Both the position numbers and the translations under genes were made by a program. This document shows, piece by piece, positions 1,580 to 30,500 of a stretch of 30,722 nucleotides of DNA (the stretch's first letter is position 1; every line of letters begins with the position of its first letter). This DNA is from a virus. Location: UHGV virus genome UHGV-0024034; one strand, written 5' to 3'. Below the pieces are notes generated by a model. It searched no databases. It was given only the letters and a program-made list of their open reading frames with translations, and had not been told where the DNA came from.

Positions 1580-2425
1580 TTAAACATGCTTTTCCAAAGT
1601 AAAAATAACCGCACCTGATGGTGTGATATCTGAAATATTACATTCAAACTCAGCAGACTTATTTGATAACCTGACCTTTCCGCCTGGCAACCTGATTACG
1701 TCAAAAACATCGAGTGCGCCATCAATACCAATAAGCCAGCGACCATTTCCTATCTTCGAGTTAGAACTATCAACAAGCCAAGATGTGCTCACACCATCAA
1801 TAAACACTAAATCATCAGTATTTGATGGAACCATAGATATATCAGGAGTCCAGCGTCCGATATCTTTGAGTTCGCCAGCCTCGAGGCGGCACTTTCTAAT
1901 CGTTAAAGCATTTGCCGGTTCACCATCATTACTGTTACGCATCTGGCCTTTTCCGGTTGATAACCATTCTAACGATACGCCAGTATCAAGGGCGCAAGTG
2001 ACAACCACGTCACCGGGGAAAAAATCGCGTCTAACCCAAGTGCTTATAGTGCCGGAAGATATACCTAATAAATCTCCAAGCTCTTTTTGCAGAGTAAAAC
2101 CATACGCATCGAGAATCCGACGCAGAACCGCCCTCCCTCCATTTGCCATGATTTCATCATAGAGTTGCTTACCTTTAAGCTTAGTTTTCACCACTTCAAA
2201 TCTTGCATTTGCAAGCTCACCATTAATTAGCCATCGCAGGTCAGCTCCAGTATCAAGAGCACACTCAACGAAAACGTTGCTAGGGATTACGTTTCTAGCA
2301 AGCCAGCTACTCACGTTGTTTGCATGTATGCCAAGCCTTTCGGCTAGTTCCTTTTGCTGCTTAAAGCCGTATGCAGAAAGGACACGTTCCAATGCGGCAG
2401 ACGCATTAACATCATTTTTAGACAT
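1580..2425 (-). CDS. cI: CI-type immunity repressor (186 CI-like) with tandemly duplicated N-terminal HTH domain
   Basis: Two internal repeats (..VLSAYGFKQQKELAERLGIHANNVSSWLARNVIPSNVFVECALDTGADLRWL.. and ..ILDAYGFTLQKELGDLLGISSGTISTWVRRDFFPGDVVVTCALDTGVSLEWL..) resembling the 186 CI HTH domain, plus a C-terminal domain. Start taken at Met-64 of the ORF-track frame, because the upstream part of the ORF runs through the promoter region. Confidence 0.8.
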   Translation of the reverse strand: MSKNDVNASAALERVLSAYGFKQQKELAERLGIHANNVSSWLARNVIPSNVFVECALDTGADLRWLINGELANARFEVVKTKLKGKQLYDEIMANGGRAVLRRILDAYGFTLQKELGDLLGISSGTISTWVRRDFFPGDVVVTCALDTGVSLEWLSTGKGQMRNSNDGEPANALTIRKCRLEAGELKDIGRWTPDISMVPSNTDDLVFIDGVSTSWLVDSSNSKIGNGRWLIGIDGALDVFDVIRLPGGKVRLSNKSAEFECNISDITPSGAVIFTLEKHV

Positions 2426-2446: not shown

Positions 2447-2475
2447 TTTACAACCAAAATTTAGCGATCTATATT
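2447..2475 (+). promoter_or_regulatory. Putative rightward early (lytic) promoter pR: -35 TTTACA (2447..2452), 17-bp spacer, -10 TATATT (2470..2475)
   Basis: Sigma70-like hexamers with canonical spacing in the cI-apl switch region; CI operators and the leftward cI promoter not resolved. Confidence 0.4.
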
Positions 2476-2538
2476 GGTGCTCACCGACCAAGATGCACAC
2501 CACTGCACTACATTTCAAACAACAGGAGATAATGCGAT

Positions 2539-2910
2539 ATGTCAGATGCAAAATCAATCTCGACGCACGACTCGCAAAACTCACAAAATCAAACTGTGCT
2601 GCTAGACCCAACACAGTTTGATGCCATCGTTACCGCCATGCTGCCAGCTCTACAGACAATGATTCGCTCCGCTATGTCAGACACGATGACTGTGAAAGAC
2701 TTCGCCGCTACTCGCGGTGTTAGCGAGCGTCTGGTCTGGCAATGGCTCGATGAGGGAGTCCTTCTCAAAGCTCCGACCAAAGACTTTTCCAACAAAGAGG
2801 AAGCTGCTAAACGAAGCCGAACCCTCGTAAATGTAAAAGCATGGCGCGATAAGCTGACTCAACAAGCGATTGATTGTCGCTACATCGACCAGCGCACCGC
2901 TCTTAACTGA
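2539..2910 (+). CDS. Apl/Cox-like excisionase and transcriptional regulator
   Basis: First rightward gene after the switch region; HTH-like segment TVKDFAATRGVSERLVWQWLDEGVL; AGGAG RBS about 10 nt upstream. Longer than 186 Apl, so the true start may be an internal Met. Confidence 0.55.
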   Translation: MSDAKSISTHDSQNSQNQTVLLDPTQFDAIVTAMLPALQTMIRSAMSDTMTVKDFAATRGVSERLVWQWLDEGVLLKAPTKDFSNKEEAAKRSRTLVNVKAWRDKLTQQAIDCRYIDQRTALN

Positions 2911-6776: not shown

Positions 6777-6796
6777 TACTGTATAAATATACAGTA
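6777..6796. promoter_or_regulatory. LexA box (SOS operator) TACTGTATAAATATACAGTA
   Basis: Perfect CTGT-N8-ACAG palindrome with an AT-rich core; -35-like TTGCCA at 6763..6768; about 20 bp upstream of the ORF at 6816. Confidence 0.8.
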
Positions 6797-6815
6797 ACCC
6801 TGTGGGAGGGATTTC

Positions 6816-6998
6816 ATGGTTGGCGAACATTTCAGCCGAACGCAGCAAAAGTGGGCTTGTGTGCAATTTATTGCCGAGGTATCTCTGATTGCAAACTGCA
6901 AGCCATCAGACTTAAAGCTCGCGCTCACTCTCATTGCAGACCTAGCAAACAGCGAAAATAACGAAACCGAAGATGATAATTTTTATAAGGCTGATTAG
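6816..6998 (+). CDS. Small protein in LexA-controlled operon; candidate Tum-like antirepressor N-terminal part
   Basis: 60-aa ORF with GGGAGGG RBS directly downstream of the LexA box; function inferred from context only. Confidence 0.45.
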   Translation: MVGEHFSRTQQKWACVQFIAEVSLIANCKPSDLKLALTLIADLANSENNETEDDNFYKAD

Positions 6999-7001
6999 AT
7001 T

Positions 7002-7235
7002 ATGAGAATCAATATCACGTTGGATAAAGAGCAAAAAATTAGTCAGGCAACATTGGATGCACTTGAGGCTGAACTGTACCGCAATCTTCAACCTATTTAC
7101 CCAAAGACTGCTATCCGAATTCGCAAGGGCTCCGCTAATGGCGTTGAACTAAGCGGTTTGAAACTGGACGAAGATAAAAAACGAGTAATGGAAATCATGC
7201 AGCAGGTATGGGAGGACGATAGCTGGCTGCATTAA
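7002..7235 (+). CDS. DinI-family protein
   Basis: 77 aa, MRINITLDK...LDALEAELYRNLQ...EIMQQVWEDDSWLH; same length and pattern as E. coli DinI as I recall it (MRI.V...DAL..EL.R...I.Q..WE..D.W). Confidence 0.75.
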   Translation: MRINITLDKEQKISQATLDALEAELYRNLQPIYPKTAIRIRKGSANGVELSGLKLDEDKKRVMEIMQQVWEDDSWLH

Positions 7236-7430: not shown

Positions 7431-7640
7431 ATGCATCGACTACCGGGCGAAATTCCGCAGCACAAAACTAAAAGCATCAAACTGATGGCCATCGTTCATC
7501 GTCTGCAGCAGATAATGGTCAATGAGAATTTGACACCCGCCGAGCTGGTCGGGTGTGCCGAAATAGTCAGGGATAATTACGGCAAGCTGGATAGCATCAG
7601 CAAGCCGACACATTACTCACCGCCACCACGTCGACCATAG
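7431..7640 (+). CDS. Hypothetical protein
   Basis: 69-aa ORF with GAGGG RBS, flanked on both sides by the hairpin repeats. Confidence 0.4.
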   Translation: MHRLPGEIPQHKTKSIKLMAIVHRLQQIMVNENLTPAELVGCAEIVRDNYGKLDSISKPTHYSPPPRRP

Positions 7641-7642
7641 AT

Positions 7643-7711
7643 AACGCCGCCGGAGCTGAAACTCGCTTTCAGGTCTGGCGGGGTTGAACAACGAGCTACG
7701 CGAGGCGTTAG
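7643..7711 (+). repeat. Hairpin-containing 69-bp repeat, copy 2 (stem 7647..7661 / 7667..7681)
   Basis: See copy 1; begins immediately after the stop codon of the ORF at 7431..7640. Confidence 0.6.
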
Positions 7712-7773
7712 CCGGTCATAGCGTCGCAAATACTTCAACCGTCTGCTGGTTAAATAATTCGAGGTTTTTGGAC

Positions 7774-7968
7774 ATGCAAAATCCCCTTTCATCGAAAAAT
7801 GACCCGTTTGCCGATTGGGCAAAGAATCTGACTTTAATGGCTTTAAATAACGACCTGAGCTCTCGCGAGGTGGAAAGCTACACCGCAAAAATGGTCGAGC
7901 AGGCCGGTAAAGATGAGCTATCAGTCGTTATCAAACACCTGTTAAATCACATCAGAATGCGCAAATAA
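7774..7968 (+). CDS. Hypothetical protein
   Basis: 64-aa ORF from an internal Met of the ORF-track entry 7684..7968, whose N-terminal part lies inside repeat copy 2; weak RBS. Confidence 0.35.
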   Translation: MQNPLSSKNDPFADWAKNLTLMALNNDLSSREVESYTAKMVEQAGKDELSVVIKHLLNHIRMRK

Positions 7969-7984
7969 GAGGAACTATATAAAT

Positions 7985-8086
7985 ATGTTATCTCTCGTTT
8001 ATGAAAATCCGTGGACGACGATTTTTCTGATGATTTTTGCCAGCATGTGCCTCAACAGTGTTATTGGCGCATTGCGCGGCCATTAA
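7985..8086 (+). CDS. 33-aa hydrophobic peptide (candidate small membrane protein)
   Basis: MLSLVYENPWTTIFLMIFASMCLNSVIGALRGH; AAGAGG RBS about 11 nt upstream; followed by a strong terminator. Below the 60-aa cut-off of the ORF track. Confidence 0.3.
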   Translation: MLSLVYENPWTTIFLMIFASMCLNSVIGALRGH

Positions 8087-8104
8087 TCGCGACAAAACCA
8101 GACT

Positions 8105-8134
8105 AAAACCGGCACCCTGAATGCCGGTTTTTTT
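8105..8134 (+). terminator. Rho-independent terminator
   Basis: Stem ACCGGCA/TGCCGGT (8108..8114 / 8122..8128), 7-nt loop, then a run of seven T; preceded by an A-run, so possibly bidirectional. Confidence 0.7.
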
Positions 8135-8294
8135 ATGCCATTTTTCCGCGAATTTCCCGTTTTTTAGTCGTGCATGCATTAGGTGCATGGTTTTGCATGC
8201 GTCAGTCTTGCCCGTTCTGTCCGTGCGCCGCCAGAGCTAGCGCGGATCCAGAGTTGTCATGCAACTGCATTAAAACCGCCCCATAAAGCGGGCA

Positions 8295-8313
8295 GGCGTG
8301 GCGGGGAAAGCAT
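8295..8313 (+). other. cos: cos site, 19-nt cohesive-end sequence GGCGTGGCGGGGAAAGCAT
   Basis: Exact match to the 186 cohesive end as I recall it (P2 differs at two positions); lies between the replication side and the packaging genes, as expected in a P2-type prophage. Confidence 0.7.
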
Positions 8314-8532
8314 TGCGCGCCAGCAGTGATGCATAATAATAAAAATTATCCTCTGAGCGCGTCGTGATGGCGCTGTCGTGGTCGCTGCTGGTTCGTTGGT
8401 GGTCGAGTGTGTTCGTGCGCGTGAGACGCATCTGATGCGTGATGGTGGTGTGCATGGAAAAGCCACCAGGAGCAGCGGCTTTACAGGAGTGGCAGGATTC
8501 AAACTGCTAATTATGTTTCTACTATGATTAAA

Positions 8533-9537
8533 CTAATTTACATGTATGTAGAGTTCACCGTCGCCAGACCAATCGGGACACTCTAAAACAAGCCCAAACT
8601 GCTTGAATATTTCATCAATGATTATTGTTATCTCCCGAAAATCACCAAAACCTGTAATGTGCTGGTCATTAAACTTCCCATAAAGATTCTGAAAAGCAAT
8701 GCCTAATTCTGATAATTGATATCTTATCTTTGAGTTGGATAGTGTAAGGGATAGCTTTGGATCGTATTCTTTAATATTGATGTTTAGAGAATGGACATAA
8801 CCCATCGCATAAGCATAAGAGTTGATGATTAGCCTGATACGTTTTTTTACTTCAAGATACATGTCATTCAGAGAAATATTACCGTACTTATAACCCCAGA
8901 TGAGTTTTTCAATCTCGTCAGATACTTCATTTACAACAGTGTCAAGATTCTCTAAAAATAAATCGATAGTTTCTTGAGGGGCAGACCCCGAAGACATGTA
9001 ATTAGCGAGATATTCAGACCATGCACGCGTGGCTGAGATAAGAAGCGCGCTACCATACTCGTTGACTGTAAAGTTTTGGGCTAAGCATGTTAGTAAGTTT
9101 TTTTCATGTACGTGCACTAATTCATGGTGAATGCGATGGATGACTGCGAGGTATCCTTCTTCTTTCAGTTTTAAGAAGCTACCATCATTGAAAAGCTCAA
9201 CAAAAAAATCAATCGATAGCACAAGGGTATATTCTTCACATAGCCCATCATTGCCAATTTTTGTTACTAACTGCCCGACGGCTGCGCCCTGTTTGCTATT
9301 GGTAAATGAACTAGGGGATTTGTGTTGGTAAGAGGATGTTACCTTTTGAAGAGCTTCACTGAAGTTATAGGAAACAATCACGCATTTTAATTTGGAGATA
9401 TCAAGATTGAGATTTTTTGTTAAAGCTCGGATAGCTTCTAGTGTGAAATTACCGATATTATTTGCTTCTTGCTCAGTAGCGAAACCTTCGAGGGTTATTT
9501 TAAAATCAGTTTCCAAAATATTAATCTCCGCGCCCAT
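8533..9537 (-). CDS. AT-rich orphan protein with HExxH motif; candidate anti-phage or abortive-infection effector
   Basis: 334-aa ORF, markedly AT-rich by eye relative to the GC-rich flanks; HELVHVHE at residues 138..145 (nt 9126..9103); no resemblance to P2/186 core proteins that I recognise; lies between cos and portal gene Q. Confidence 0.6.
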   Translation of the reverse strand: MGAEINILETDFKITLEGFATEQEANNIGNFTLEAIRALTKNLNLDISKLKCVIVSYNFSEALQKVTSSYQHKSPSSFTNSKQGAAVGQLVTKIGNDGLCEEYTLVLSIDFFVELFNDGSFLKLKEEGYLAVIHRIHHELVHVHEKNLLTCLAQNFTVNEYGSALLISATRAWSEYLANYMSSGSAPQETIDLFLENLDTVVNEVSDEIEKLIWGYKYGNISLNDMYLEVKKRIRLIINSYAYAMGYVHSLNINIKEYDPKLSLTLSNSKIRYQLSELGIAFQNLYGKFNDQHITGFGDFREITIIIDEIFKQFGLVLECPDWSGDGELYIHVN

Positions 9538-30206: not shown

Positions 30207-30281
30207 AAAAGCAAACCAAAACTTGCAAATGCAATTTTGAAGTTTATTATTCCCTCAGATACGCCAGCAGGGGAAATAATT

Positions 30282-30500
30282 ATGATGCACTGCCCGTTAT
30301 GCCAAAACGCCGCACATGCTCGCACTAGCCGGTACCTTAGCACCGAAACAAAAGAACGTTATCACCAGTGCCAGAACATAAATTGCGGATGTACATTTAT
30401 CACTTTTGAGACGCTATCAAGATTCATTGTGAAACCGGGTACTGTTGATCCTGCTCCGCCACACCCCATCAGAAACCAACAACAGCAACTTTGGCTTTGA
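30282..30500 (+). CDS. ogr: Late gene activator, Ogr/Delta (186 B) family zinc finger
   Basis: 72 aa from MMHCPLCQNAAHARTSRYLSTETKERYHQCQNINCGCTFITFETLSRFIVKPG, near-identical in pattern to P2 Ogr; the ORF-track start at 30237 is an overextension. Confidence 0.9.
   Translation: MMHCPLCQNAAHARTSRYLSTETKERYHQCQNINCGCTFITFETLSRFIVKPGTVDPAPPHPIRNQQQQLWL

Follow-up and report, generated by a model that had tools for sequence, protein, structure and literature searches.

A 186-type CI repressor with two helix-turn-helix domains of opposite conservation in a PSP3-like prophage

One of the questions raised by the immunity region of UHGV virus genome UHGV-0024034 is why its CI repressor carries two DNA-binding domains when the CI of phage 186 has one. 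The window, by which is meant the whole stretch of 30,722 nucleotides that was analysed, is a P2-like prophage of the 186/PSP3 (Eganvirus) type, and the gene in question is cI, on the minus strand between positions 1580 and 2425. The switch of 186 is one of the few well-understood alternatives to that of lambda, and one of its puzzles is how one helix-turn-helix (HTH) copes with two kinds of site on a 14-mer wheel. In the wheel model, seven dimers form the 14-mer, and the DNA sites comprise three operators at pR along with the distal sites FL and FR (PMC3675496; bioRxiv 10.1101/2021.10.29.466366). What, then, does a second HTH offer such a repressor, and which sites would each copy read? The answer that we favour, with somewhat better than even confidence, is a two-headed repressor in which pairs of the second domain (D2) would read conserved distal and late-promoter sites and pairs of the first (D1) would read phage-specific operators at pR; the assignment of domains to sites, the oligomeric state and the regulatory outcome are what we infer.

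Fundamental to this is the architecture of the protein itself. The open reading frame (ORF) runs from an ATG at 2425 to a stop codon at 1580-1582 and specifies 281 amino acids (aa), in which Pfam recognises two stretches of PF07022 (Phage_CI_repr, E 1.5e-47) and, at aa 176-269, PF16452 (Phage_CI_C, E 4.6e-19). When aa 1-85 were compared with aa 86-281 by BLASTP, aa 10-70 aligned ungapped on aa 99-159 with 31 of 61 residues identical (51%, E 3e-22). The gene and its domains are laid out as follows.

Positions 1580 to 2425, minus strand: cI gene, a 186-type immunity repressor with two HTH domains (281 aa plus stop).
Positions 2222 to 2404, minus strand: D1, aa 8-68, the N-terminal variable HTH, recognition helix at about aa 35-43, HANNVSSWL (Pfam stretch, AlphaFold2, entropy and substitution ratio).
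Positions 2138 to 2221, minus strand: D1-D2 linker, aa 69-96, of which aa 69-85 are predicted to be disordered, followed by a conserved helix at aa 86-95 (LKGKxLYDEI); it includes Met93.
Positions 1955 to 2137, minus strand: D2, aa 97-157, the near-invariant HTH, recognition helix SSGTISTWVRR (lowest entropy of any region).
Positions 1583 to 1900, minus strand: C-terminal oligomerisation domain (CTD), aa 176-281, with the fold of the 186 CI CTD (PF16452; Foldseek against 2fkd_A).

The original prediction had described two segments of about 60 aa sharing a pattern and followed by a distinct C-terminal domain, and was correct in every particular. Its statement that 186 CI is single-domained and much shorter also holds, since that protein has 192 aa and one HTH, and its structure (PDB 2fjr, chain 2fjr_A) aligns only to aa 100-274 of the window protein, which is D2 plus the CTD (phmmer E 4.3e-21). 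The intragenic tandem duplication that it read into a CI immunity repressor is borne out as well by D1 being closest to D2, with 49-51% identity to D2 and D2-type single domains and at most 38% to any other lineage. We are highly confident that 1580-2425 encodes a working CI of the 186 type in which the tandem duplication of the HTH is translated.

The AlphaFold2 model of CI has a mean predicted local distance difference test score (pLDDT) of 78.9 and a predicted template modelling (TM) score of 0.60, at which the relative placement of the domains is unreliable and no inter-domain geometry is usable. Within these limits D1 is modelled as a five-helix bundle at aa 8-68 (helices at 8-19, 24-31, 35-43, 49-59 and 63-68), followed by a low-confidence stretch at aa 69-85, where pLDDT drops below 50 at aa 75-80, an extra helix at aa 86-95, a second five-helix bundle for D2 at aa 97-157, a low-confidence linker at aa 158-175 and a beta-rich CTD at aa 176-278. 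In the model a flexible linker of about 17 residues joins two diverged copies of the 186-type HTH. The CTD superposes on that of 186 CI (2fkd_A) with a TM score of 0.88 and a root-mean-square deviation of 2.0 Å over 109 columns in Foldseek, the solved structures among CI relatives being those of 186 CI only (2fjr, 2fkd). The acidic Asp235 aligns with 186 Glu146, a residue that is Lys in the 2fjr chain.

The likeness to 186 extends beyond the PF07022 and PF16452 folds. In both, cI heads a leftward lysogenic operon that ends in int and faces a lytic operon with cII; there are distal sites (operator-like candidates in the window) within cI, close to the apl/cII junction and at the promoter of the late activator; and a LexA-boxed module of the Tum/DinI type is present, for which the antirepressor role in the window is putative. 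Unlike the 186 protein, whose one HTH serves the annotated pR and FL/FR/pB sites from a chain of the usual size of about 190 aa, the window CI has two HTHs of differing conservation, and the window also differs in its operator sequences, in its Apl analogue, which is unrelated, and in having an additional gene, DUF2511, placed between cI and int.

How unusual is such a protein? Full-length matches of the same two-HTH architecture at 67-92% identity were found in PSP3 (deposited as AY135486, with CI as AAN08403.1), SEN1, SW9, SI22, Midge, RCIP0057 and vB_EcoM-613R3 (613R3), where they are annotated just as CI or repressor. A protein search yielded more than 120 clusters at 90% identity, of 267-289 aa and all called 'phage repressor protein CI' or similar, and among family representatives at 50% identity about 10 are double-HTH, most others having about 190 aa. 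One genome per species was scanned, and the 80 loci that resulted comprise 66 with an intact double-HTH gene, from more than 20 genera of Enterobacterales, 2 with a disrupted one and 12 that are true single-HTH. Two of the double-HTH loci come from assemblies labelled Pseudomonas lundensis (L039) and Vagococcus sp. (L073), the sequences being typical of Serratia-type and Kosakonia-type prophages, so that contamination or mislabelling is likely. The original prediction had named a standard two-domain architecture as the outcome that would count against it, and this applies by half: the two-domain form is standard in the PSP3-like subfamily and a minority across the whole 186-CI family. The PSP3-like two-HTH subfamily is a grouping defined in the present analysis, and the window gene is an ordinary member of this large, uncharacterised group, with the order D1-linker-D2-CTD, the D2 helix ISSGTISTWVRR, and full-length identities of 91.5% to SW9 CI and 73% to PSP3 CI. 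The extra length of PSP3 CI has been put down to a 'longer C-terminal domain' (PMC3448106), and literature searches found no description of a duplicated HTH in a PSP3-type CI. The two-HTH variant is common in databases and, it seems, has never been studied.

The two copies have evolved in opposite ways. Of the three domains D2 has the lowest mean column entropy over 72 double-HTH proteins (more than 20 genera), at 0.52 bits, compared with 1.16 for D1 and 1.65 for the CTD. Even between proteins of 41-46% overall identity the recognition helix of D2 is essentially invariant, with S123, T126, S128, W130, R132 and R133 as its invariant residues, whereas the D1 recognition helix is variable, being HANNVSSWLARN in the window, AKHSVSGWVQRD in PSP3, PSNSVSTWVQRN in Midge and many other things elsewhere; the D1 signature residues Q24, S39, W41 and R44 are invariant among closer homologues. 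Since the synonymous sites of D2 are near saturation in the phages compared, its conservation reflects selection acting on the protein rather than a recent exchange of DNA. No part of CI is more conserved than D2, and D1 is the variable HTH, an asymmetry that is new here.

The DNA offers a conserved candidate site for D2. The palindrome TTGCA-NN-TGCAA has exactly two perfect copies in the window, with 0.02 expected from shuffles, and a weaker third.

Positions 2200 to 2217, unstranded: FL-like candidate operator inside cI, AGCTTGCAAATGCAAGAT, with the core TTGCA-NN-TGCAA at 2203-2214, over linker codons 71-75 (LANAR).
Positions 30223 to 30234, unstranded: late-promoter (pB-like) candidate operator TTGCAAATGCAA; the -35 that it overlaps is in the promoter of the ogr/B/pag-like gene (30282..30500).
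Positions 2913 to 2924, unstranded: weak FR-like copy TTGATTATGCAA, matching 8 of the 10 specified bases and lying after the first lytic gene (stop at 2910) and ahead of the cII ATG (2943).

The two perfect copies correspond in position to sites annotated in 186, FL (inside cI) and pB, and a late-promoter 15-mer, AACTTGCAAATGCAA, does not vary among the window, PSP3, SW9, Midge and RCIP0057. Of the 71 other double-HTH loci, 55 have the internal copy between +211 and +229 of cI with one mismatch at most. Copies of that quality also pile up at an FR-like position, -370 to -507, and at -36 in Serratia, and loci of Yokenella and Kosakonia have, at the equivalent place (-452 to -507 relative to the start of cI), better FR-like copies than the window. 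The LANAR peptide encoded by the internal copy is part of the predicted disordered linker, and its codons are fixed, Leu71 being CTT in 27 of 28 cases, Ala72 GCA in 55 of 57, Asn73 AAT in 50 of 51 and Ala74 GCA in 37 of 44; the GCA share at other conserved alanines is 10-29%, as against 96% and 84% over the palindrome. Such fixation at synonymous positions is selection on the internal copy at the level of the DNA.

What ties this palindrome to D2 is a set of relatives in Rahnella, Ewingella and Chimaeribacter (L075-L087) with a CI of 196 aa, whose single HTH is 80% identical to D2 with the same helix, which have the same CTD and which, unlike the window protein, have no D1. In those of Rahnella and Ewingella the palindrome lies between the -35 and the -10 of their own pR, which is where an operator must be, and it can thus be taken as their pR operator. 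In the window, by comparison, there is no TTGCA or TGCAA half-site in 2426-2482 and no D2-type site with one mismatch or fewer over pR. Two further ideas about the palindrome were set aside. In Kosakonia loci the one-mismatch copies at +324 coincide with the conserved D2 peptide FQMQK, whose coding probably produced them incidentally. The view of the linker as a fossil of an ancestral 5' region with its ancestral pR operator is speculation, for which the sole basis is the spacing of 54-66 nt that separates the palindrome from Met93 downstream of it, or from the start codon in single-HTH genes; no DNA similarity was found beyond the palindrome.

The DNA around pR behaves quite differently, in that it follows D1. 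The elements concerned are these.

Positions 2447 to 2475, plus strand: pR candidate, sigma-70-like, with -35 TTTACA (2447-2452), a 17-nt spacer and -10 TATATT (2470-2475).
Positions 2529 to 2557, minus strand: pL candidate, convergent with pR, with -35 TTGATT (2557..2552), a 17-nt spacer and -10 CATTAT (2534..2529), read from the sequence.
Positions 2436 to 2464, unstranded: candidate D1-type operators over pR, O1 CAAGAATTTTG at 2436-2446 and O2 CAAAATTTAG at 2455-2464.

The position of pR is conserved across related loci. The block 2483-2600, within which the putative pL falls, is identical in six phages, the window sharing it with PSP3, SW9, Midge, RCIP0057 and 613R3, whereas 2426-2482, with the pR hexamers and their surroundings, is of three types that match three D1 types: window and SW9, PSP3 and 613R3, and Midge and RCIP0057. 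These three types are probably heteroimmune; among PSP3-group CIs as a whole there are at least three types of D1 with adjacent pR DNA. The 613R3 sequence matches the window at 96-100% identity rightward of about 2500 and at 50-76% leftward, a drop that places a recombination or mosaic junction at about 2483-2500, and cI with its pR module is exchanged as one unit. Across the 66 double-HTH loci the pR spacer usually holds a palindrome, the two arms of which vary in step with the D1 helix: AATCGCA-TT-TGCGATT in Kosakonia, TCCCGCA-AAA-TGCGGGA in locus L071, ATCCA-TA-TGGAT in locus L061 and ACACG-TTA-CGTGT in Dickeya. In the window O1 and O2 flank and overlap the pR -35 and make up an inverted repeat, AATTTTG-N8-CAAAATT (2440-2461); they are kept in loci that share the D1 helix (SW9, L010, L033) and replaced in those with other D1 types.

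Several features of this region stand on their own. A GCGATC element, holding a GATC Dam site, abuts the pR -10 (GCGATCTATATT, window 2464-2475) in most double-HTH loci whatever their D1 type, and is absent from single-HTH relatives and from 186. The identity of block 2483-2600 extends to synonymous positions in the first 20 or so codons of the first lytic gene, and the block type tracks the type of that gene. It contains the direct repeats TGCAC-N5-TGCAC (2494-2508) and CAAAATCAA, the latter at 2549 and 2584, 35 bp apart, which may be sites of the Apl/Cox analogue or elements of pL. As D2 half-sites the TGCAC repeats were rejected, given that the block changes with the first lytic gene while D2 is invariant, and they are more likely to be sites for the Apl analogue. 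An octamer common to pR and the late promoter, ACCAAAAT, was dropped when its late-promoter arm proved unconserved in SW9 despite the same D1, as was an inverted repeat at 2588-2622 in the first lytic gene that is not kept in PSP3 or SW9; a search for perfect inverted repeats with 6-bp arms shared between the switch and the late promoter found none.

With these observations the favoured mechanism can be set out. The two D2 domains of a CI dimer would read the family-wide palindrome AACTTGCA-NN-TGCAAGTT, at the FL-like site 2203-2214 within cI, the weak FR-like site 2913-2924 and the pB-like site 30223-30234 on the late-activator -35. The two D1 domains would read phage-specific operators over pR (about 2436-2464), and by reading them would set immunity specificity. 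Oligomerisation through the 186-like CTD would, by analogy with the 186 wheel, allow one particle to hold pR and the distal sites together, and induction would proceed through the LexA-controlled antirepressor-like module. The two jobs of the single 186 HTH, at pR and at the distal sites, would thereby be split between D1 and D2. That this split is a subfunctionalisation that followed tandem duplication, with a fast-evolving D1 reading the immunity-specific pR and a frozen D2 reading the group-wide palindrome, we put forward tentatively, at a little under even confidence. Several points weigh against the two-headed reading: (i) O1 and O2 are A/T-rich, imperfect palindromes that were defined post hoc and carry little weight alone; (ii) D1 and the pR DNA are adjacent, such that their co-variation could be the inheritance of one recombining block; (iii) the link between D2 and its palindrome comes from shared recognition helices and co-occurrence; (iv) the FR-like copy of the window is weak; and (v) a good internal palindrome is missing in 16 of the 71 related loci.

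The best surviving alternative, though an unlikely one, takes up the pseudo-dimeric module of the original prediction, with D1 and D2 of one polypeptide on the two halves of one asymmetric operator and a changed half-site geometry. The HTHs are in tandem, the linker as modelled is long enough to reach across adjacent major grooves, the two recognition helices differ, and the pR spacer of the window is not a clean palindrome and has the conserved GCGATC adjoining its variable part. There is also precedent: in engineered single-chain 434 and Cro repressors two DNA-contacting modules in each chain sit on one operator. Both modules are likewise reported to contact one operator in the monomeric two-domain repressor of a mycobacteriophage (PMC9283540). 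Such repressors have two unlike half-sites in each operator, whereas the candidates here, judged by sequence, are symmetric palindromes of two classes, each of which would be read by a symmetric pair. The D2-associated site is symmetric and stands by itself, unaccompanied by any conserved variable half-site, at the late promoter and at the FL-like and FR-like positions; many related loci have a perfect pR palindrome both arms of which change together with the D1 helix; and the pR region of the window lacks the D2 half-site. Thus, of the earlier proposal, the connection with immunity specificity stands, in that D1 tracks the DNA of the immunity region, and the pseudo-dimeric geometry is unsupported, the mechanism originally proposed being probably mistaken in its details.

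Rather improbable is a scheme in which D2 alone binds DNA and D1 is a diverged module of HTH fold that, for example, docks or decoys a Tum-like antirepressor or modulates oligomerisation. It would suit the conservation of D2, its match to the sole HTH of single-domain relatives, the variability of D1 and the presence of the LexA-controlled antirepressor-like module. However, it leaves pR of the window without an operator, as no D2-type site with one mismatch or fewer lies there, and D1 keeps the HTH signature residues of the family, is under strong purifying selection within a D1 type and has pR palindromes that co-vary with its helix.

The converse, that D1 alone reads operators, with D2 a spacer or protein-interaction surface and the palindrome bound by another factor or serving as a promoter or RNA element, is very improbable. 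It can point to the late-promoter palindrome coinciding with a -35-like TTGCAA. Yet the palindrome is also conserved within cI, where a promoter is unexpected, it is the only palindrome between the pR -35 and -10 of single-HTH relatives whose sole DNA-binding domain is D2-like, and the residues of the D2 recognition helix are the most invariant in the protein.

Hardly credible, finally, is an annotation artefact in which the true protein begins at Met93 as an ordinary single-HTH CI and the upstream copy is untranslated, since, although Met93 aligns with the start codon of single-HTH relatives, D1 differs between the window and SW9 by 23 synonymous and 2 nonsynonymous changes (a ratio of nonsynonymous to synonymous rates, dN/dS, of 0.01), the frame is open and conserved across the 72 sequences, the equivalent ATG is the start in SW9, Midge and many genomic homologues, pR lies directly upstream of the ATG at 2425, and Met93 has no Shine-Dalgarno motif before it and is Leu or Val in several more distant double-HTH homologues. 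D1 is thus inside the real gene, the possibility raised originally that the first copy lies upstream of the real start does not apply, a mis-called start is excluded for practical purposes, and Met93 looks vestigial.

Where did the second domain come from? Two other groups of CIs, that of Klebsiella phage 4LV2017 and P0138 and that of P0180, P0193 and P0194, also have two PF07022-type domains followed by a 186-type CTD. Unlike in the window, their two recognition helices are far less diverged, and their duplications are separate ones: D1 is 62-64% and 52-69% identical to its own D2 in the two groups, respectively, and at most 51% to other lineages. Because the D1 of each lineage resembles its own D2 most, the HTH domain has been duplicated independently in at least three lineages of the 186-CI family. 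A neighbour-joining tree without support values nests the single-HTH D2-type CIs inside the double-HTH clade, and these may be secondary losses rather than ancestors; both directions, gain or loss of D1, fit a D2 that reads the TTGCA-NN-TGCAA palindrome. In 4LV2017 (L006) a vestigial Met likewise precedes the D2 of cI, and GTTCAC-type half-sites, which are not interpretable, occur in the linker DNA as well as upstream of the gene.

The surroundings of cI are those of a 186-type prophage. The integrase (158-1207) and a DUF2511 gene (1232-1570) precede it in the window, and on the opposite strand follow the Apl/Cox analogue (2539-2910), cII (PF06892, 2943-3452) and a replication gene, an order that matches PSP3, SW9 and Midge. 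Two further features belong here.

Positions 2539 to 2910, plus strand: first lytic gene, an Apl/Cox analogue of 123 aa (phrog_3554), with a weak Cox-like excisionase match over aa 48-110 (E 8e-5).
Positions 6779 to 7235, plus strand: likely SOS induction module, with a perfect LexA box CTGTATAAATATACAG at 6779-6794, a 60-aa ORF at 6816-6998 and a DinI-like ORF at 7002-7235.

The first lytic gene has no Pfam match and its PSP3 homologue has been described as a singleton (PMC3448106); at least three different proteins occupy this position in related loci. In the induction module, the 60-aa ORF is phrog_1993 and has no Pfam match, the DinI-like ORF has 77 aa, and the arrangement resembles the split tum (antirepressor plus DinI) reported for PSP3 (PMC3121763). 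The DUF2511 product has a signal-peptide-like N-terminus, and the gene is also found in PSP3, SW9 and Midge and is absent from 186; it is likely to be cargo expressed in the lysogen. Between the DinI-like gene and the portal gene (7431-9537) are ORFs without a Pfam match, including one of 334 aa on the minus strand (8533-9537), and such a position in P2-like phages is reported to hold variable anti-phage cargo (PMC9122126).

The two-HTH architecture itself is not unique to the window, and what is new here, besides the conservation asymmetry of D1 and D2, is the co-variation of pR with D1 and the palindrome at both sites. Two heads with opposite evolution, together with a putative operator embedded in linker-coding DNA, would be moderately surprising to specialists in phage switches. 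Recognition of two-HTH repressors would improve annotation, since they all go under the plain label 'CI' and the extra length was wrongly placed at the C-terminus in one comparative paper. That three lineages have each undergone the duplication points to a selective advantage of a general kind. If the two-headed reading is true, it would represent natural subfunctionalisation within one repressor chain, such that immunity diversifies while the long-range architecture of the switch is left untouched, and one D2 site would be written into the very DNA that encodes the linker between the two heads. A widespread natural two-headed variant would provide a direct handle on the two-site puzzle of 186.

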